Shown here one piece after another: positions 1-9,233 of a stretch of DNA of 9,233 nt. Source of the DNA: Escherichia coli (GTDB taxonomy: Bacteria > Pseudomonadota > Gammaproteobacteria > Enterobacterales > Enterobacteriaceae); assembly GCF_003334255.1 (NCBI RefSeq), contig NZ_QOWU01000090.1. One strand, given 5' to 3'. The notes under the pieces are model-generated. The model was not told the DNA's origin, made no database searches, and saw only the letters and a program-made list of their open reading frames with translations. The translations under genes and the position numbers were made by a program. The stretch's first letter is position 1. Every line of letters starts with the position of its first letter.

Positions 1-76
1 AGTTATCGTGAGAGTAATTCATCGGCACGTTAAATCATATCAGGCGTAATACCACAACCCTTAAGTTAGCGCTTAT

Positions 77-96
77 GGGGGGAAGTCCCCCTTTTT
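77..96 (+). terminator. Possible intrinsic terminator ending a transcript that enters from the left edge
   Basis: GGGGG(77-81) / CCCCC(87-91) stem with 5-nt loop, immediately followed by TTTTT (92-96). The T-run is only on the + strand side. Short stem, so only moderate support. Confidence 0.4.
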
Positions 97-404
97 AACG
101 TCATTTTATGCAGGGAATGTGTAGTTCTACACAGATTCTATGCAGTATCGGTATAGTCCCTTTTTATTCTAACTTATTGAAATATATAAAGAATCTGCAA
201 AGCCTCTTTTCAGGGAGCTATGCAGGGTGTTAGTCGTCCCTCTCCAGACACTACATATAGTGCTATATACAGGGCTATATAACGATATATAGATGTTTGG
301 TCACATGGTGTAACTATCAAGAAACTTAATAGTTTCCTATGTGAAAGTTATTTCTGAGGGTGGGTAAGTGCTCAGGAGATTTCATGAGGATAATTCTTAT
401 CCGA

Positions 405-486: not shown

Positions 487-1029
487 TTATTCAGCTTTAA
501 TACGCTGTACAGTTGACTTGGCAACGTTGAATTGAGCGGCTACTTTAGCGATTGAACTACCAGCAGCAAGAGCAGCTTTAATACCTTCTCTGTCAACCGC
601 TTTACCGTTACCCCTTCCAACTACACGACCAGCAGCTTTAGCAGCTTCATAACCTTCTCTTTGACGCTCAAGCATCATTTTACGTTCAGCTTCAGCCACT
701 GCTGAAAAGATTGTGAGAATCATCTTAGACGTGGGGTTATCGTCACCAGTTATCAGACCTTCTTTGTGAAAGTGAACCTTGATACCTTTCTGTGAAAGTT
801 TATCCACCAGCGTTAATACATCCACGGTAGAGCGCCCTAAACGTGACAGGTCGTGTACATGGATAGTGTCACCTTCACGAACATAATCGAGCATAGCCTT
901 TAGTTGTGGACGGTCTGTATTCTTCCCAGATGCTTTATCAGTAAATACCTTATCCAGTACGACCCCTTCAAGTTGACGGTCTGTAATCTGCTGGATTGAT
1001 GAAACTCGAACATAACCAATGTTAGCCAT
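487..1029 (-). CDS. Small serine recombinase (resolvase / DNA invertase family)
   Basis: Translation MANIGYVRVSS.Q...Q... gives the catalytic-serine N-terminus typical of Hin/Gin/Tn3-type serine recombinases (Ser at position 10 when started at the second Met), DLSRLGRS motif, and a C-terminal GR..GR..-HTH (SIAKVAAQFNVAKSTVQRI). The ORF track extends to 1053 (8 more residues, MSKANEYI); I prefer the internal ATG at 1027-1029 because it places the catalytic Ser at the canonical position, but the SD is weak for both starts. Confidence 0.85.
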   Translation of the reverse strand: MANIGYVRVSSIQQITDRQLEGVVLDKVFTDKASGKNTDRPQLKAMLDYVREGDTIHVHDLSRLGRSTVDVLTLVDKLSQKGIKVHFHKEGLITGDDNPTSKMILTIFSAVAEAERKMMLERQREGYEAAKAAGRVVGRGNGKAVDREGIKAALAAGSSIAKVAAQFNVAKSTVQRIKAE

Positions 1030-1363
1030 AATATACTCATTTGCCTTACTCATTTGATGGATTGAGTATAACGTACCGATAAAGTGTTTTACAAGGCTAA
1101 TCGGTATGGTTTTTACAGGGGGTTAGCTATACCTTTTTAGTATGCTATATCGGTATGCCTAAGAGATGGAGATGCCTTTACAGCAACTCACATAGAAAGT
1201 CAATAGATATTTGGCTTTTTTGCAAAGGGGGTCACATAGCTGGTGTGACGGGTACTTAGCAGGTATAGACCTGTGATAGATATTTTCGAAGATTCGGGGA
1301 AGATGAGATTCAAAGAGGGCTAGTCATTTTTTATAAAAATTTTCAGACTCTGAAAAGTTACTG

Positions 1364-1468
1364 TACAGATTTTATACAGATATCTTTAAAGTATCTGTAA
1401 AGACTTTTAAGATAAGAGATAGATATCCCAGAAAGGATATCCGTTTAGAAAACCTGTTAAGTATCTCT
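1364..1468. repeat. Cluster of dyad-symmetric elements in the recombinase / methyltransferase divergent intergenic region (candidate operators or recombinase binding sites)
   Basis: TACAGAT direct repeat (1364-1370, 1375-1381); 8-bp inverted arms TACAGATA (1375-1382) / TATCTGTA (1392-1399) with 9-bp spacer; GATATCC (1422-1428) / GGATATC (1435-1441) with 6-bp spacer; AGAGATA (1415-1421) / TATCTCT (1462-1468). Each alone could be chance; the clustering is the evidence. Confidence 0.4.
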
Positions 1469-1521
1469 TAAAAGAGAGTAAACCTTGTCAATAGTGATTG
1501 CAATAAAAATTTTTATTTCTT

Positions 1522-2184
1522 ATGTCAATTGAGCATATTTTAATCGGGAAACATCATGGGGGTTCTGATTACTGGAGAACTCCATTTCTTATATTCCGCA
1601 ATTTGCACCGTGAGTTTAGTTTCAGTCTGGATGGTGCTGCAACTGAGCATGACACGCTGTTACCACGATTCACCAATGATATTCACAATCAGTCATGGGA
1701 TGGTGAACGGGTGTTCTGTAACCCACCATACAGCGACACTAAAACATTCCTCCTAAAAGCCGCTGAAGCGGATTTAGCGGTATTCCTGATACCGTACCGA
1801 CCCCACACCACATACTGGCTTAAGCACCTCTTCACAAACCCGCTTTGCCATGAAATCCGTATTCTTCATCGTGCAGTTAAATACCTTCCACCAGCAGGGC
1901 ATAACGGGCTTGCTATTAGGTCACCGTTTGCAAGTGCAATTGTCATCTTTAAAACTGAGCCACGCAGACATGAAATTACGCAGATGATTTGCTGTGCTGA
2001 TACATTGCTACCGTTAACCATCATTAACAGAGGAGGCTTAAGAGGAAGACCCACCATTTACCCACCTGAGACGCTCGACAGCTTCATAAAGCTATACAGG
2101 CAAGGAAAACCCATTAAGTGCATTGCAGATGCTCTCAGAATGCCTCTGAGCACGTCATACAGGATTGCGCAAAGGTTGAGCTAA
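1522..2184 (+). CDS. Phage-type DNA N6-adenine methyltransferase (Dam-like, NPPY family) with a C-terminal resolvase-type helix-turn-helix
   Basis: N-terminal ~150 aa carry DYWRTP...FSLDGAATEH...RFT...WDGERVFCNPPYS...PFASAIVIF, the motif order of the phage Dam N6-adenine methyltransferase family (catalytic NPPY). The C-terminal ~55 aa, NRGGLRGRPTIYPPETLDSFIKLYRQGKPIKCIADALRMPLSTSYRIAQR, follow the GRP...HTH pattern of Hin/resolvase DNA-binding domains. No convincing SD precedes the ATG at 1522, so the start is uncertain. Confidence 0.8.
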   Translation: MSIEHILIGKHHGGSDYWRTPFLIFRNLHREFSFSLDGAATEHDTLLPRFTNDIHNQSWDGERVFCNPPYSDTKTFLLKAAEADLAVFLIPYRPHTTYWLKHLFTNPLCHEIRILHRAVKYLPPAGHNGLAIRSPFASAIVIFKTEPRRHEITQMICCADTLLPLTIINRGGLRGRPTIYPPETLDSFIKLYRQGKPIKCIADALRMPLSTSYRIAQRLS

Positions 2185-2550
2185 AATTCTCATAAATATG
2201 GCCATTTACAAGACAGGTGATTTAGATATTAAGAAGTATCCCTGTGAACAATAAATGACCAATCAGTAATTATTCTGTGAAATAATTGTTGCAATCTATA
2301 ATCACACATGATATAGTTTCATAGTGGGCTGATAAAAAAGTTCATGTCTTGAAGTGGTAACACTTGGGGAGGTGTCAGATGATTGACGTCAACAAGACCT
2401 CTCATTCAGGGTAATTACCTCAGCGTTTTAATCATCGTACTGTTTCAGGCATGGACTTCTTTATCAGTCCATCAATCCCCCAGATATTTTAATCACACAG
2501 GCTAATCGGTTTTATCCGGTTGGCCTTTTCACGTATGAGGTAATTTATGA

Positions 2551-3489
2551 ATGTCTAAATATAACCCAAATCAGTTTTATAAATTTGATGTGCGAATCTC
2601 TCAGCTTTCAGAAGAAATTAACGCAGCAGCAAGATTAATTTATATGGTCATGGTTCATAGCTGTGATTTCTATGAAGAGAAGTACAAAGCATATTCACCA
2701 AGTATTGACCATCTAGCTTATATGGCTGGTGTTTCAAAGAGAACGGCAATCAGAGCTATTGAGACACTTGAGAAACACGGTTTAATTCAGGTGCAAAAGA
2801 ATCAGGGTCGTCAAAGCACTTATCGTGTATTCACACTGGATGATAAGCCGGAATTACTTGTAAGACCTACATCACAGGAAGTTGCAGCCTCAGTAAGACA
2901 AAATGACACCACTACCAGTGACAAAATGTCATCAGTACCAGTGACAAAATGTCATGGGGGTAGTGACAAAATGTCACCCGTGTTAGATAAGTTATTAGAT
3001 AAAACATTAGATAATAATATTATAGATAAGAGTAAAGATACTGAACTTGATGTTGGTATCAATGAAGATGATTTTCTTTCTTTGGATGAATTAAATGATT
3101 TTCTCTCTATGAATGAATCTGACCTTGATAGTGAAGCTACTAAAGAGACCTCTAAAACATCTGACTTAGAGGAAGATAAAATCTCTGATGTGAATGAAGT
3201 TAGTGACCAGCAAGATACACCTTGCCGCCTCGAATCAACTGATGATGAATTACCGGATGTTGACCTTGATGATGAAGAAGACCCTGAAGAGGAATTGAAA
3301 CGTGAACAGCGTAAAGCAGAAATTAAAGAAAGATTCAGAAAGGCAAAGCTAAAGAACAGGATTGATGAACTTGATGACTTTGATGATAGTGACGATGATT
3401 TTACTTTTACACCAAAAAAGAAAACTCACACCGAGCCAAAGAAAGAAAAAGTTAAAGTCAGACGTGTTTATGCTGGAGGAATGTTTTAA
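2551..3489 (+). CDS. Replication initiator, lambda O-like (N-terminal winged-helix DNA-binding region, iterons inside the gene, highly acidic C-terminal tail)
   Basis: SD GAGG at 2537-2540. N-terminal 100 aa (…IDHLAYMAGVSKRTAIRAIETLEKHGLIQV…STYRV) look like a winged-helix replication-initiator domain. The middle of the gene holds an iteron array plus an AT-rich tract. The C-terminus is low-complexity acidic (DDELPDVDLDDEEDPEE…DDFDDSDDD). The functional call rests on architecture and was not confirmed by a homology search. Confidence 0.65.
   Translation: MSKYNPNQFYKFDVRISQLSEEINAAARLIYMVMVHSCDFYEEKYKAYSPSIDHLAYMAGVSKRTAIRAIETLEKHGLIQVQKNQGRQSTYRVFTLDDKPELLVRPTSQEVAASVRQNDTTTSDKMSSVPVTKCHGGSDKMSPVLDKLLDKTLDNNIIDKSKDTELDVGINEDDFLSLDELNDFLSMNESDLDSEATKETSKTSDLEEDKISDVNEVSDQQDTPCRLESTDDELPDVDLDDEEDPEEELKREQRKAEIKERFRKAKLKNRIDELDDFDDSDDDFTFTPKKKTHTEPKKEKVKVRRVYAGGMF
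2894..2976. repeat. Iteron array: four copies of a ~15-bp dyad element (consensus AGTGACAAAATGTCA) at 22-23 bp spacing, inside the rep coding sequence
   Basis: Exact copies at 2917-2931, 2940-2954 and 2962-2976; a degenerate copy (11/15) at 2894-2908. Arms TGACA / TGTCA are inverted repeats. The period is not a multiple of 3, so the encoded peptide (SDKMSSVPVTKCHGGSDKMSPV) is not itself repeated; conservation is at the DNA level. Confidence 0.65.
2981..3060. other. AT-rich tract with phased TAGATAA repeats immediately after the iterons (candidate DNA-unwinding element of an embedded origin)
   Basis: TAGATAA at 2984, 2996, 3008 and 3023 (about 12-bp phase) within a very AT-rich stretch (gttagataagttattagataaaacattagataataatattatagataag). 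Position relative to the iterons mirrors the lambda origin layout. Confidence 0.45.
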
Positions 3490-3779
3490 TGAAAGAATAT
3501 AACGGTGAAAAACGATACAAAGATTATCTATTAAGGCGCTACAGCATTTCTCGTGAAGGTCATCTTCTGAAAGATACTCATGGGGAGGTTTACCGGATTC
3601 GACCGAAGAAGGAAGGAAAGAATTATTTCTTTTTTGATGGTGTGACAGATTTAAAGATTGACGCTTTGAGGTTTGCAGTGATGTATCATTTTGATGTCTG
3701 GGATTCAGTCCACCAGCTACGATTAAAAGACGGTGACCCCGGTAATCTGAAGGCCACCAATATCATCACAAAACGTTAG
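3489..3779 (+). CDS. Hypothetical 96-aa protein with weak NUMOD4 / HNH-like resemblance
   Basis: Start ATG overlaps the rep stop (TAATG at 3487-3491), suggesting translational coupling. YSISREGHLLKDTHGEVYRI resembles the NUMOD4 motif and VHQLRLKDGDPGNLKATNI loosely resembles the HNH_3 core, but the canonical catalytic His/Asn positions are not all present. The coding call is reasonable; the functional call is weak. Confidence 0.5.
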   Translation: MKEYNGEKRYKDYLLRRYSISREGHLLKDTHGEVYRIRPKKEGKNYFFFDGVTDLKIDALRFAVMYHFDVWDSVHQLRLKDGDPGNLKATNIITKR

Positions 3780-6823: not shown

Positions 6824-6866
6824 GGGAGAGATTATCGAGTGATATCGGTAGTTTCTCCCTTTTTTG
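6824..6866 (+). terminator. Intrinsic terminator
   Basis: GGGAGA (6824-6829) / TCTCCC (6854-6859) stem enclosing a structured loop, followed by a 6-T run (6860-6865). Confidence 0.65.
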
Positions 6867-6873
6867 TATGTGT

Positions 6874-6915
6874 GCTACGTGAAATCTTCTGAACAGATAT
6901 ACCCACCAAAAATTA
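6874..6915 (+). repeat. 42-bp intergenic direct repeat, copy 1 (upstream of the 688-aa gene)
   Basis: gctacgtgaaatcttctgaacagatatacccaccaaaaatta; 35/42 identical (ungapped) to 9113-9154, with the first 26 nt matching 24/26. Confidence 0.6.
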
Positions 6916-6956
6916 TTTTTTACGTAGCTCACGCTTAAAGAGGTGAAAAAATATGA

Positions 6957-9023
6957 ATGGCACAATTTAAAGTTGATGATTTTCTGATTGAGCTAGGTTT
7001 TAACTCTCAGAGGGTTTTAAAAGGTCTGGAAAAAGCCGAGAAACAAACGATGCAGGTAGCATCACGAATTGAGAAGCGATTGAATAAAGCTTTTAAAGTT
7101 AACCCTACGCCTTTAAATGATTCTCTCAAGGTCATGGAAAGAAATGTCGATAAAACTGTTTCCAAGATTGAGCAGCGTCTTAAAAACACTAAAGCGTTTA
7201 AGATTAAAACGGAAATTGAGGATACTTTAAAGCCACTTAGACAACCGAGACAGCCACGAATTAGCGGAAGCAGAGCAATTACAGCAGCGCATAGCGTGAA
7301 TATGAGCAAGCTTCGTGACTTTAATCCTATGCTTGAGAAGTATTTTAAAAGCCAGTATTACAGCTTAAGCAGTAAATCCAAGACACTTGGAAACGAAGCT
7401 TTTAATCGTGAGTTAGCAAAATTAAATCAATCTCTTCGTGAAACACTTTCTAAGTTTAACAAGACCACCAGCAAAAATAATCACAGTGAAAATGCTTCGA
7501 ATGGTCTGGATGTATTAGCTACGAGTGCAATCAAAGCAGGTACAGCCATTTATAGTTTTCAGACAGCCTTAGAAGCTTACAGGCGGATTATGGAGGTTGG
7601 TCTGAAAAAAGAAGCATCACAACGAGCGGCACAATTCGTTTTAGGTGATGAAGGTGCTAAACGAGCTACAGAATTTGTTAAGAATCTTGCTGATAGTAGT
7701 GGTGTAGACCAGATTGAAACATTAAGCAGTTTTGCTAAGTTTTCCGCTGGTGCTGGTGATATGAATGCAGACCAGAAAGAATCCTTATTTTCTAATGTGA
7801 TTGGTACATCCAGATTAATGGGGCTAAGCACCGATGAAATTAACGGGATTTTAAAAGCTTTCGAGCAGATGGCATCTAAAGGAAAGATTCAGGCTGAAGA
7901 GCTACGCGGTCAATTAGGTGACAGAATGGCAGGTGCTTTTCAGTTATTTGCCAGAAGTCTTGGGATGACTACGGAAGAATTAGACAAGGCTATGAAAGAC
8001 GGTAAGGTTCTTTCTAAAGATGTTCTCCCTAAAGTATCCGCTGAAATGGGAAAGATGATTGATAAAGCGGGAGGATGGGAAAAGATTATTAACTCTACTC
8101 AGACGCAGTTAGGCCGCTTAAGTAATTCATGGAATAATAATTTGGCCTTAATGTTCGATGGTTCACAGGAAGGTTTAACAGACTTTACAAGGTCACTGAC
8201 TAATTTACTTAATTCACTGGGTGGTCAATCTAAAAATCTTGGTGAACATTTTGGCGACTTGATGAAAAGCATGTCAAACGGTATTGATGATTTAACCACG
8301 ATTAGCTACCGAGTGCAGGGATTCTTTGACAGAGTGACCCTTGCTTACAGAGAATTAAATGACACTCAAAAAGCTGTAGCTGATGGTATCGCAAATGGCC
8401 TGTTAAGTGCATTAAAGGGACTTGCTGGTATTGTCGCTGTAAGGTCTGGTATTGGTGCTGTAGGTGGTATCTGGAACTTAATTAGGGCTATTTCCACGCT
8501 TGGGAATGTAGCAAATACAGCAGCAGGAAGAATTAATTCACGTTCTGGTGGTGTTGAAAGTGGAAAAAGTAGGCTATCTGTAGCTGATGCAATTACCAGA
8601 GTAATGATTGTCGGTATGACAACTGATGTGATTAATGCCATTGTCAAACCGTTCTATGAACGTCAGATGAGTAAGTCAGATAATCCGATTGATAAAGTTG
8701 TAAGGTCAAAGGTGGAACCCACAGACCAGGCATTAACTGGTGACATGAACTCTTTAGCCGCTGTTTTATGGGCTATGGTTCATGGCAAATCAAAAGATGT
8801 TCCACAGTTTTCACCTGAAGCATTAAATAATCTAAAAGGTCGAGTGGAAACATTCACACAAGATTTAAAGGTTATCAAGCCGTCAGTAAATATTCAGCCT
8901 CAGACAATCAATATCACAACTCAGACGGTACTTGATGGAAAGGTTATTGATGAAAGAACCACATCGCATATTAATCGTATGCAGGAAGATACCTTGATTA
9001 GCTCAGCTTACCCAGAGGAATAA
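6957..9023 (+). CDS. Tail tape-measure-like protein (688 aa)
   Basis: SD AGAGGTG at 6938-6944. Coiled-coil-like N-terminal region. Central segment …MASKGKIQAEELRGQLGDRMAGAFQLFARSLGMTTEELDKAMKDGKVLSKDVLPKVSAEM… (DNA about 7800-8050) matches the conserved pattern of the tape-measure N-terminal domain as I recall it. Followed by a Gly/Ala-rich hydrophobic stretch (GLLSALKGLAGIVAVRSGIGAVGGIWNLI). The coding call is strong; the product call is from motif memory, not a search. Confidence 0.75.
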   Translation: MAQFKVDDFLIELGFNSQRVLKGLEKAEKQTMQVASRIEKRLNKAFKVNPTPLNDSLKVMERNVDKTVSKIEQRLKNTKAFKIKTEIEDTLKPLRQPRQPRISGSRAITAAHSVNMSKLRDFNPMLEKYFKSQYYSLSSKSKTLGNEAFNRELAKLNQSLRETLSKFNKTTSKNNHSENASNGLDVLATSAIKAGTAIYSFQTALEAYRRIMEVGLKKEASQRAAQFVLGDEGAKRATEFVKNLADSSGVDQIETLSSFAKFSAGAGDMNADQKESLFSNVIGTSRLMGLSTDEINGILKAFEQMASKGKIQAEELRGQLGDRMAGAFQLFARSLGMTTEELDKAMKDGKVLSKDVLPKVSAEMGKMIDKAGGWEKIINSTQTQLGRLSNSWNNNLALMFDGSQEGLTDFTRSLTNLLNSLGGQSKNLGEHFGDLMKSMSNGIDDLTTISYRVQGFFDRVTLAYRELNDTQKAVADGIANGLLSALKGLAGIVAVRSGIGAVGGIWNLIRAISTLGNVANTAAGRINSRSGGVESGKSRLSVADAITRVMIVGMTTDVINAIVKPFYERQMSKSDNPIDKVVRSKVEPTDQALTGDMNSLAAVLWAMVHGKSKDVPQFSPEALNNLKGRVETFTQDLKVIKPSVNIQPQTINITTQTVLDGKVIDERTTSHINRMQEDTLISSAYPEE

Positions 9024-9112
9024 ACAATGTTAGAGCTACTAATATTTATTGCCACACATGGCAATCTATTAATCTTTATCTAGTATGACGATTCAACTAT
9101 GAATAGTCGAAT

Positions 9113-9154
9113 GCTACGTGATTTCTTCTGAACAGATACCAACATCAAAAATTA
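9113..9154 (+). repeat. 42-bp intergenic direct repeat, copy 2 (downstream of the 688-aa gene)
   Basis: gctacgtgatttcttctgaacagataccaacatcaaaaatta; see copy 1 at 6874-6915. Confidence 0.6.
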
Positions 9155-9233
9155 GATGAACCGCCCCGGGTTTCCTGGAGAGTGTTTTATCTGTGAACTC
9201 AGGCTGCCAGATCATTGTTTCCGATGGAAGCAT

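Follow-up and report, generated by a model that had tools for sequence, protein, structure and literature searches.

Dyad-rich DNA beside a small serine recombinase gene in an Escherichia coli island matches non-coding sequences of Felix O1-like phages

Which protein, and which process, do the inverted repeats serve that crowd the space between two divergent genes of an Escherichia coli island? The question arises in a 9,233-nt stretch of DNA (contig NZ_QOWU01000090.1 of assembly GCF_003334255.1; "the window" below is that whole stretch), where the gene of a small serine recombinase (here rec1), read leftward, and that of a Dam-family methyltransferase, read rightward, are separated by a gap. 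A first-pass annotation took this gap (1054–1521) for one control region and its dyads, together with motifs on the far side of rec1, for candidate resolution, inversion or autoregulatory sites. The gap is non-coding and extends over 1030–1521, given that rec1 probably starts at ATG 1029 (MANIGYVRVS), because the PGAP annotation gives 543–546 nt for the gene in relatives. The interval 1054–1521 is three juxtaposed modules and not one control region: a res-like region next to rec1 (module 1, 1045–1169), Part A (module 2, 1200–1378) and Part B (module 3, 1379–1521). We think it somewhat more probable than the contrary that the island lives as a satellite on virulent phages of the Felix O1 type (Ounavirinae), with two of its three modules copying phage signals.

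The inverted repeats on ACAGATA/TATCTGT and GATATCC/GGATATC cores are present where the first-pass annotation had placed them (Table 1), and their clustering exceeds chance. The folding energy of the segment 1340–1521 is −37.3 kcal/mol, whereas its shuffles average −27.4 (z = −2.70; 1 of 200 shuffles equals it), and its opposite strand gives z = −2.80. Motif counts, which are post hoc, were set against expectations in the window from dinucleotide-preserving shuffles (n = 200): ACAGATA occurs seven times for 1.6 expected (0 of 200 shuffles reach seven), GGATATC four times for 1.0 (8 of 200 reach four), CAGGGNGTTAG twice for 0.01 and TATGCAGG four times for 0.24. The copies of TATGCAGG lie at 107, 219 and 469, the first two shifted by one position from the original reading, with a fourth at 8978. 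Similarly, CAGGGnGTTAG is found near both sides of rec1, at 223–233 and 1116–1126 rather than from 224 and 1120. No open reading frame (ORF) of at least 20 aa, and so no hidden small gene, is present in 1314–1519; an Rfam E-value scan of the whole window gave three matches only, all at chance level, and a scan of IMG/VR for the dyad gave 0 matches.

The two dyads have different distributions. That on GATATC is near-invariant in both classes of copies compared (29 island-type, 15 phage-type), and covariation in the same copies speaks neither for nor against an RNA hairpin. The ACAGATA/TATCTGT dyad is broken without compensation in 11 of the 29 metagenomic islands and is absent from the phages; it is island-specific. 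A wider ACAGAT motif of ~16–20 nt (CTrwACAGATwyyATryAG) recurs in the non-coding DNA of the island, at 131, 1365, 1376, 6893 and 9132, that is, in the left flank, at the Part A/Part B junction and in two tail-gene leaders; it is found also in the cargo-free slot of the relatives L016–L018 (L016 ~1180). The shorter form WACAGATW occurs eight times for 2.2 expected.

Between a left flank (123–350) and a conserved right part (from ~1200), the islands have a cargo slot that varies among relatives. It holds rec1, a second recombinase, rec2, in the opposite orientation (L001), a third, rec3 (L015), extra genes, or no recombinase (L010, L016–L018). The three recombinases are only 30–35% identical pairwise, and the unit exchanged relative to L015 is 467–1169. 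Upstream of their genes, rec2 and rec3 have half-site clusters of their own (TGAGAC five times, TATAGAC four times). The segment 1330–1525 is almost invariant in seven islands with rec1, rec2, rec3 or none (alignment A5), and the same near-invariance holds in 29 metagenomic copies. Because the segment stays nearly the same whichever recombinase is present, and because it is homologous to phage DNA (see below), the two dyads are, on sequence grounds, not sites for the neighboring recombinase.

The original proposal, that the dyads at 1364–1468 and the far-side motifs are res, hix-like or autoregulatory sites through which rec1 inverts or deletes its own segment or controls divergent promoters, is thus largely refuted already, and we give it hardly any credence. 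It draws on dyads that are real and non-random, on several types of small serine recombinase recurring in the slot, and on an imperfect inverted repeat that brackets the gene (174–213 against 1350–1389), the best of its kind and only 70% complementary. A query with 214–1349 flipped between the two arms of this repeat was searched against 5426 E. coli genomes; 530 genomes matched it, ~30 of which carry the rec1 cassette, and none has a full-length inverted match. Among the metagenomic islands with a small recombinase in the slot (16 of 29), the orientation is fixed in 16 of 16, with rec2-type genes always on the plus strand and rec3-type genes always on the minus strand. A consensus search allowing 3 mismatches for the 26-bp crossover site of the Din family (TTC---AAAC- -A -GTTT---GAA, from the site table of PMC3241671) found one chance-level match, at 3765. 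Without an inverted full-length match and without a Din-type site, an inversion switch was discarded. Also discarded, as recombinase partner sites, were TATCGGTAT, CAGGGnGTTAG and TATGCAGG, which do not co-vary with the recombinase in relatives: L002, with the same recombinase in a 98% identical cassette, has TATTGATAT where the window has TATCGGTAT, and GTGTTAGTC is kept with every cassette type. Finally, the closest proteins to rec1 are resolvases and not Gin, and 1045–1156 offers it a better site.

At least three unrelated small serine recombinases, and variants ~72% identical to two of them, occupy the slot (window 487–1169; L001 15230–15990; L015 718–1470; metagenomic loci L019–L094). That they were acquired again and again suggests a need of the island for a function of the resolvase type.

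Part B leads to the phages. A sensitive blastn search with 1200–1521 against 50,697 phage records (2.3-Gb database) matched 266 of them; among the matches listed (the best 20 of the 266) all are Ounavirinae, with Mooglevirus and Suspvirus best, at 82–86% identity over 60–80 nt of window 1383/1399–1461 (E 2e-10 to 8e-9). In the phages, the match falls in a ~390-bp divergent gap between a leftward morphogenesis/tRNA unit and a rightward block, which is the gene 40/41 region of Felix O1. A promoter, P41, has been placed in that region in the Felix O1 genome paper, where temporal regulation is reported as not known (PMC3185647). The order of elements is shared (alignment A2): CTTTTAAG-type repeats, CTTTTAAGATAAGAGATAG, the GATATC dyad, more repeats, and TTGTCAA...TGTCAA/TTGCAAT, which read on the other strand is the −35 of P41. 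In the window, TGTCAA at 1486–1491 corresponds to TTGACA on the minus strand, and CTNTWAAG repeats are found at 1384, 1395, 1404, 1454 and 1465–1467. The phage dyad reads AGATATC-CAGAAA-GATATCT, and the island version is longer by one base on either side of the loop; this extra C...G is a single suggestive event. The CTTTTAAG-type repeats of the phage form a perfect 20-bp palindrome, CTTTTAAGAnnTCTTAAAAG, directly beside the gene 41 ribosome-binding site.

Between Felix O1 and phage 3HA14 the 40/41 gap is 83–95% identical and the flanking genes are 78–86% identical. A second divergent phage gap, ahead of the DNA polymerase gene, is built in the same way, and clusters of CTNTWAAG occur at three phage non-coding regions, namely both divergent gaps and a 1.6-kb non-coding region. 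A phage factor (or a host factor modified by the phage) whose targets in the phage are the CTTTTAAG-type repeats and the GATATC dyad would recognize the island copy as well. Part B would thereby couple the rightward island genes, the methyltransferase and then the replication module, to infection, and a leftward transcript may also be coupled to it.

Two other candidate users of the Part B repeats have to be weighed, both encoded by the island. Some methyltransferases with a helix-turn-helix (HTH) region autoregulate (SsoII/EcoRII-type). As the first-pass annotation had it, both proteins flanking the gap carry resolvase-type HTHs, that of the methyltransferase being an HTH_7 at residues 175–215 that follows a GRP motif. 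For this domain, the Part B repeats and dyads could serve as operators, in self-repression or in tethering, which may coexist with a response to the phage; we consider it unlikely. The methyltransferase gene follows this version of Part B in 7 of 7 genomic and 22 of 29 metagenomic cases (exact 14-mer test), and with the site table already cited TATCTGTAAAGA agrees with the gix half-site TTCCTGTAAACC at 8 of 12 positions and ATCTCTTAAAAG with the cix half-site TTCTCTTAAACC at 9 of 12 (PMC3241671). These Din half-site matches are partial, however, and lack the AAACC end. Furthermore, the repeats and the GATATC dyad exist in phages with no homologue of the methyltransferase or of its HTH (tblastn), and L003, which has no methyltransferase, keeps CTTTTAAG-type arrays.

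The array could also be a replication origin, its repeats being iterons for the island initiator, with the phage arrays being phage origins instead of transcription or packaging signals. The repeats do come every ~11 bp (1384, 1395, 1404), an invariant AT-rich block is nearby, relatives that lack the methyltransferase have the array immediately before their replication operon, and similar arrays fill the 1.6-kb non-coding phage region. Yet L002, L004, L005 and L010, with a different replication module, retain Part A and similar arrays; this weakens the proposal, since an initiator-specific origin should change with its initiator. The phages have their arrays in the terminal repeat and at each of the two divergent promoter regions, and the island initiator has no phage homologue. 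We rate an origin as quite unlikely, below the methyltransferase operators.

Part A matches the phages at another place, the right boundary of their direct terminal repeat (DTR). A profile of six island sequences alone finds 3HA14 at 74405–74573 (E 4.7e-16), the only place in that 88.6-kb genome, and phage Pr103Blw at 525–699 (E 7.7e-11); all islands tested align collinearly, on one strand, with 3HA14 74418–74572. The Pr103Blw record is opened at its physical end, with the DTR annotated at 1–581 (MW481326) and 87841–88421 in identical copies, and a DTR of 581 bp has been reported with PhageTerm (PMC8303462). The Part A match covers position 581, the annotated DTR end, for which the window equivalent is ~1255–1257. 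Islands and phages have in common the conserved blocks GATATTT, TTTTGCAAAG, GTAC..AGCAG, AGATATTTT, TTTTATAAAAATTTT and CTG.A..CTrTAyAG (alignment A3); GTAC..AGCAG straddles the DTR boundary, and the remaining blocks flank it on both sides. Part A is the most widely kept piece (411 E. coli genomes, ~300 without this Part B). Because ~300 of these 411 matches stop at window 1374–1378, that position is a common module junction.

Part A is a candidate signal for packaging or terminase processing. It mimics the DTR boundary where, as we infer, the phage terminase must recognize and cut concatemers, and it would let that terminase process and package island DNA. In the phages, the terminal repeat sits in a gene-free region of 1.2–1.6 kb (L009 28911–30519, equal to 3HA14 73911–75519; L013 1–1213), full of 9–11-bp repeats: CTGTTAAGA, ACTAACAAG, CTATATAG and CTTTTAAG. 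Other island versions of Part B, those of L004 and L005, match different parts of this region.

The likeness to phages might be an inert relic of recombination between a decaying prophage and Felix O1-like phages, leaving dyads with no present function. The element in the window is damaged, with an insertion sequence (IS) at both ends, and mosaic junctions are frequent. Against this, Part B hardly varies among islands from four integration sites, which differ by 5–13% in Part A and in the genes; the blocks of Part A are the same in islands as in two genera of phages, and the gene order and intact ORFs are kept in hundreds of genomes that carry the element. A relic is very unlikely.

The reading of the island as a satellite is based on three computed results, namely homology to phages, a mosaic structure and independence from the recombinase; that no inversion was found is a computed result too. 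Ounavirinae are the closest match for Part A and Part B and likewise for the tape-measure and baseplate proteins. In their gene lists, the full-length islands (11–13 kb) have no capsid, portal or terminase gene, and their only structural genes are homologues of tape-measure and baseplate genes, the gene annotated as phage baseplate protein being next after the tape-measure gene. The islands have their own replication initiator and, at one end, a large serine integrase (506–514 aa by annotated gene length in L001, L003 and L010). In scans of the nine window proteins with PHROG, NCBIfam and PADLOC, no marker family of P4-like elements (psu, delta, sid, alpA, tyrosine integrase), PICI (tyrosine integrase, alpA/stl, pri-rep) or cfPICI (capsid genes) was matched. 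The broader claim, that the islands form an undescribed family of Ounavirinae satellites in ~8–10% of complete E. coli genomes, at four or more integration sites, with 1200–1521 as the helper interface, is put forward tentatively, at slightly less than even confidence. The terminal-repeat-boundary mimic would recruit the helper terminase, and the 40/41 mimic would sense infection. No description of the island, or of any satellite of Felix O1-like phages, was found in the searchable literature, which leaves most subscription journals outside.

The nearest parallel in biology is the PLE with its phage ICP1 (PMC9638900, PMC9410903). Like the island, the PLE is small and chromosomal, uses a large serine recombinase as its integrase, encodes an initiator of its own and lacks capsid and terminase genes, and its partner is a virulent myovirus and not a temperate phage, as the partner of the island appears to be. 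There are differences: no sequence relation was found, the host and the phage family are not the same, and the island, known here from sequence alone, has homologues of phage tape-measure and baseplate proteins together with copied phage non-coding DNA. In the P4/P2 pair, a cos site is shared and the late promoters carry the same activator-binding dyad and are cross-activated by Ogr/Delta. The logic is similar, with a satellite that has the packaging signal of its helper and helper-like promoters, so that helper factors act on both. The sequences differ, P4 has a tyrosine integrase, P2 is temperate and packages by cos, and the signals copied by the island are a terminal-repeat boundary and an early/late divergent control region.

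Module 1 brings back the recombinase. In the PDB, rec1 aligns end to end with Tn3 resolvase (E 9e-31) and gamma-delta resolvase (1e-30), and less well with Gin (2e-24); the match to phrog_125 has E 1e-58. The protein shows the catalytic-serine context YVRVSS and an N-terminal catalytic domain followed by a C-terminal HTH. Given the three-dyad geometry with repeated half-sites upstream of the gene, 1045–1156 is a candidate, found by inspection, for the res or autoregulatory site of rec1. The expectation of a site next to rec1 thus holds up, with a good candidate that lies upstream of the gene and over its promoter, and not at 1364–1468. The dyads have WTACYNNT half-sites, are separated by gaps of 21 and 5 bp and extend over ~112 bp overall, and the promoter-like site of rec1 falls inside the second and third (sites II and III). 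TACCGAT occurs five times in the window for 0.67 expected, three of them in the res-like region. There is one res-like copy per island, with half-sites invariant in five relatives. The res of Tn3 has 114 bp and three dimer-binding sites, with spacers such that I = III + 3 bp and II = III + 9 bp; the same spacer relations hold for the rec1 dyads, which also stand next to their gene.

Tn3 and gamma-delta are thus alike to rec1 in protein alignment (E ~1e-30) and in three dyads upstream, over the promoter. Their half-site, TGTCYNNTA, differs from WTACYNNT. The rec1 cassette, only ~700–850 bp, has neither terminal inverted repeats, such as the 38-bp repeats of a replicative transposon, nor a Tn3-family transposase: no transposase ORF (tnpA) stands beside it. 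As a free-standing island cassette, it is more like a plasmid multimer-resolution system than like Tn3. The Din invertases (Hin, Gin, Cin, Pin; sites hix, gix, cix) share with rec1 a small serine recombinase with a C-terminal HTH and a phage-related element, and some Part B repeats resemble the outer part of gix or cix half-sites. They differ in that rec1 scores higher against resolvases and that its locus has no full 26-bp site, no good inverted pair of sites and no orientation polymorphism. Probably, rec1 would bind 1045–1169, repress itself and resolve dimers of the excised, replicating island. Gene and site would form an accessory multimer-resolution cassette that is swapped for other cassettes of recombinase plus own site, or lost.

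Several points weigh against the satellite reading. Only the right DTR boundary is copied, a homologue of the left one not being found in four islands, and neither the double cutting of an 11–13 kb element nor the filling of an 88-kb-sized capsid is explained. The DTR boundary comes from one depositor's PhageTerm annotation of one Felixounavirus. In Part B, the 29 island and 15 phage copies of the GATATC dyad show no compensatory variation, and individual dyads are dispensable, because relatives such as L003–L005 carry other versions, some (L003) without the GATATC dyad. No phage homologue of an island regulator was found, and no phage factor binding the repeats was identified. Before the ATG of the methyltransferase there is no convincing sigma-70 promoter or ribosome-binding site. 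In module 1, the candidate res is assigned from geometry and repeated half-sites, and the cassettes are 88–98% identical, so that conservation of the half-sites says little. Induction, replication and packaging of the island by a phage, like each step of binding, cutting and activation, are predictions, and the IS-truncated copy of the window may be inactive.

Table 1. Positions of the features discussed, in window coordinates
Feature	Position	Strand	Basis or remark
IS4-family (IS421-like) end, cuts the island on the left	1–79		100% matches to IS421-annotated DNA in plasmid and phage records
Terminator-like hairpin GGGGGGAAGTCCCCC with T-run	77–91	+	Follows the gene of the large serine integrase in relative L003
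Non-coding left flank of the variable cargo slot	123–350		Alignment A1: long invariant blocks in six islands whose cargo differs
Intrinsic terminator of the recombinase gene	443–461	−	Resembles a phage terminator
Small serine recombinase rec1, resolvase-like, 180 aa from ATG 1029 (probable start)	487–1029	−	Longest ORF extends to 1053
Res-like site III (candidate), TACTCA-N10-TGAGTA, 22–24 bp	1047–1068	−	Overlaps −10; invariant in 5 relatives
Promoter-like site of rec1: −35 TTGTAA 1094–1089, 18-nt spacer, −10 TATACT 1070–1065	1065–1094	−	
Res-like site II (candidate), ATACCGAT-N19-ATCGGTA, 34 bp	1074–1107	−	Brackets the −35 element
Res-like site I, candidate crossover, ATACC-N18-GGTAT, 28 bp, central AT	1129–1156	−	Inspection
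Part A: homologue of the right DTR boundary of Felix O1-like phages	1200–1378	+	Alignment A3
Block TTTTATAAAAATTTT	1329–1343		Invariant in all aligned islands and phages
Perfect 17-bp palindrome TTTTCAGACTCTGAAAA	1340–1356		Sequence inspection
Dyad TACAGATA (1375–1382) / TATCTGTA (1392–1399)	1375–1399		8-bp arms, 9-nt spacer; spans the Part A/Part B junction
Part B: homologue of the phage gene 40/41 divergent control region	1379–1521	+	blastn, alignments A2 and A5
Dyad GATATCC (1422–1428) / GGATATC (1435–1441), loop CAGAAA	1422–1441		7-bp arms, 6-nt spacer
Palindrome TCTCTT-AA-AAGAGA	1464–1477		Sequence inspection, alignment A5
Weak candidate leftward promoter, P41-homologous position	1477–1503	−	TTGCAA-N15-TTTACT, compared with TTGACA-N15-TATAGG of Felix O1; inferred
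Dam-family N6-adenine methyltransferase with C-terminal Hin/resolvase-type HTH	1522–2184	+	Pfam PF05869 4e-15, HTH_7 5.5e-4
Sigma-70-like promoter (the best one) preceding the replication module: TTGCAA-N17-TATAGT with TG	2289–2317	+	
Replication initiator (DnaD/O-like)	2551–3489	+	PHROG matches 2e-10 to 1e-9
Repeated ~80-bp element upstream of the tape-measure gene	6866–6950	+	Second copy 9107–9146 cut by the IS3-family element
Tape-measure protein, related to those of Ounavirinae	6957–9023	+	tblastn full length, 27–33% identity
IS3-family end, cuts the island on the right	9146–9233		Last 88 bases of the window

In the genes to the right of the gap, the methyltransferase is an orphan according to PADLOC, and its fused DNA-binding domain occupies residues ~165–220 (RGRPTIY...STSYRIAQRL). 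The gene is an insertion that separates Part B from the replication-module promoter; L003 is without it, and in relatives that lack it Part B stands ~100 bp upstream of that promoter. The region 2289–2380 has a strong sigma-70-like promoter and then a conserved leader with a good ribosome-binding site (GGGGAGGTGTCAGATG), which opens a reading frame of only 11 codons; this leader before the replication gene might encode a short peptide or act as a regulatory RNA. Several genes of unknown function lie between the initiator and the tape-measure gene. The ~80-bp element upstream of the latter is present also before the baseplate gene (L001 23936–24010) and reads TGCTACGTGAwwTCTTCTGAACAGATA...AAAAATTA...ACGTAGCTCACGCTTAA, with a GCTACGT/ACGTAGC dyad and an ACAGATA core; the two look like a pair of co-regulated promoters. 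The tape-measure gene is 77–87% identical in nucleotides to 3HA14 over 7857–8062 (~200 nt), and the island baseplate protein (L001 24021–24791) is 70% identical to the product of the 3HA14 gene that comes after the phage tape-measure gene. This similarity points to recent gene exchange with Mooglevirus-type phages. Apart from these two, no island protein has a homologue in 3HA14 (tblastn).

On the left, the flank of the slot is conserved whatever the cargo, most strongly over 128–286, with the blocks CACAGATTCTATGCAGTAT, TAACTTATTGAAATATATAAAGAATCTG, GTGTTAGTCGTCCCTCTC and GCTATATACAGGnCTATATAACG; compared with phages, 123–350 gives no match. After excision, it would adjoin attP and the integrase gene. 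The terminator of rec1 (AAAAAGCCCCCATGAAGGAGGCT, 439–461) is 92–100% identical over 23–25 nt to a terminator of 3HA14 (22557–22580) and matches also Pr103Blw 1178–1201, beside the non-coding terminal region. In L003, homology with the window begins at position 77, and the left IS adjoins the hairpin that in L003 comes after the integrase gene. In L002, the integrase gene at this end is captured in part, and in the window an IS takes the place of that end. With both ends replaced by IS, the window copy is probably without integrase and immobile.

Relatives of the window are present in 411–569 of 5426 complete E. coli genomes (~8–10%), chromosomal in every case, and none of the complete genomes has a copy more than ~95% identical to the window. 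The four integration sites are between yciI and tonB, within yecE, beside ymdF and beside lafU. In E. coli O157:H7 Rafaela_II (L010, 2305–2319 kb), a relative of the island sits in yecE, with an IS1203 insertion and no small recombinase; its cargo differs, with a 306-aa protein and an AP2/ERF-domain protein. Inverted-repeat insertions of ~40–60 bp (TAGTTGATTCGG...CCTCATAG) break the non-coding DNA of some islands (L017 ~1040–1080 and ~1470–1500; L018 ~630–670 and ~1450–1500), including Part A of L018, and look like miniature mobile elements.

For annotation, the lesson is that dyads beside a recombinase need not be recombination sites, the real res being likely located at 1045–1156. For the phages, more is at stake. 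Felix O1-like phages are widely used in the typing of Salmonella and E. coli, in biocontrol and in therapy, and their transcriptional programme and packaging signals are still undefined. If the satellite reading is true, the island would be to a virulent coliphage what PLE is to its phage, a parasite of a kind not found described in the searchable literature, and would probably reduce or disturb phage yield, which would bear on therapy. The invariant blocks common to island and phage would constitute a natural comparative map of the important non-coding bases of the phage, and the CTTTTAAG-type repeats and the GATATC dyad would point also to regulatory and packaging signals of the Ounavirinae themselves. 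The islands would then offer a tractable E. coli model of satellites that exploit phages packaging by direct terminal repeats.

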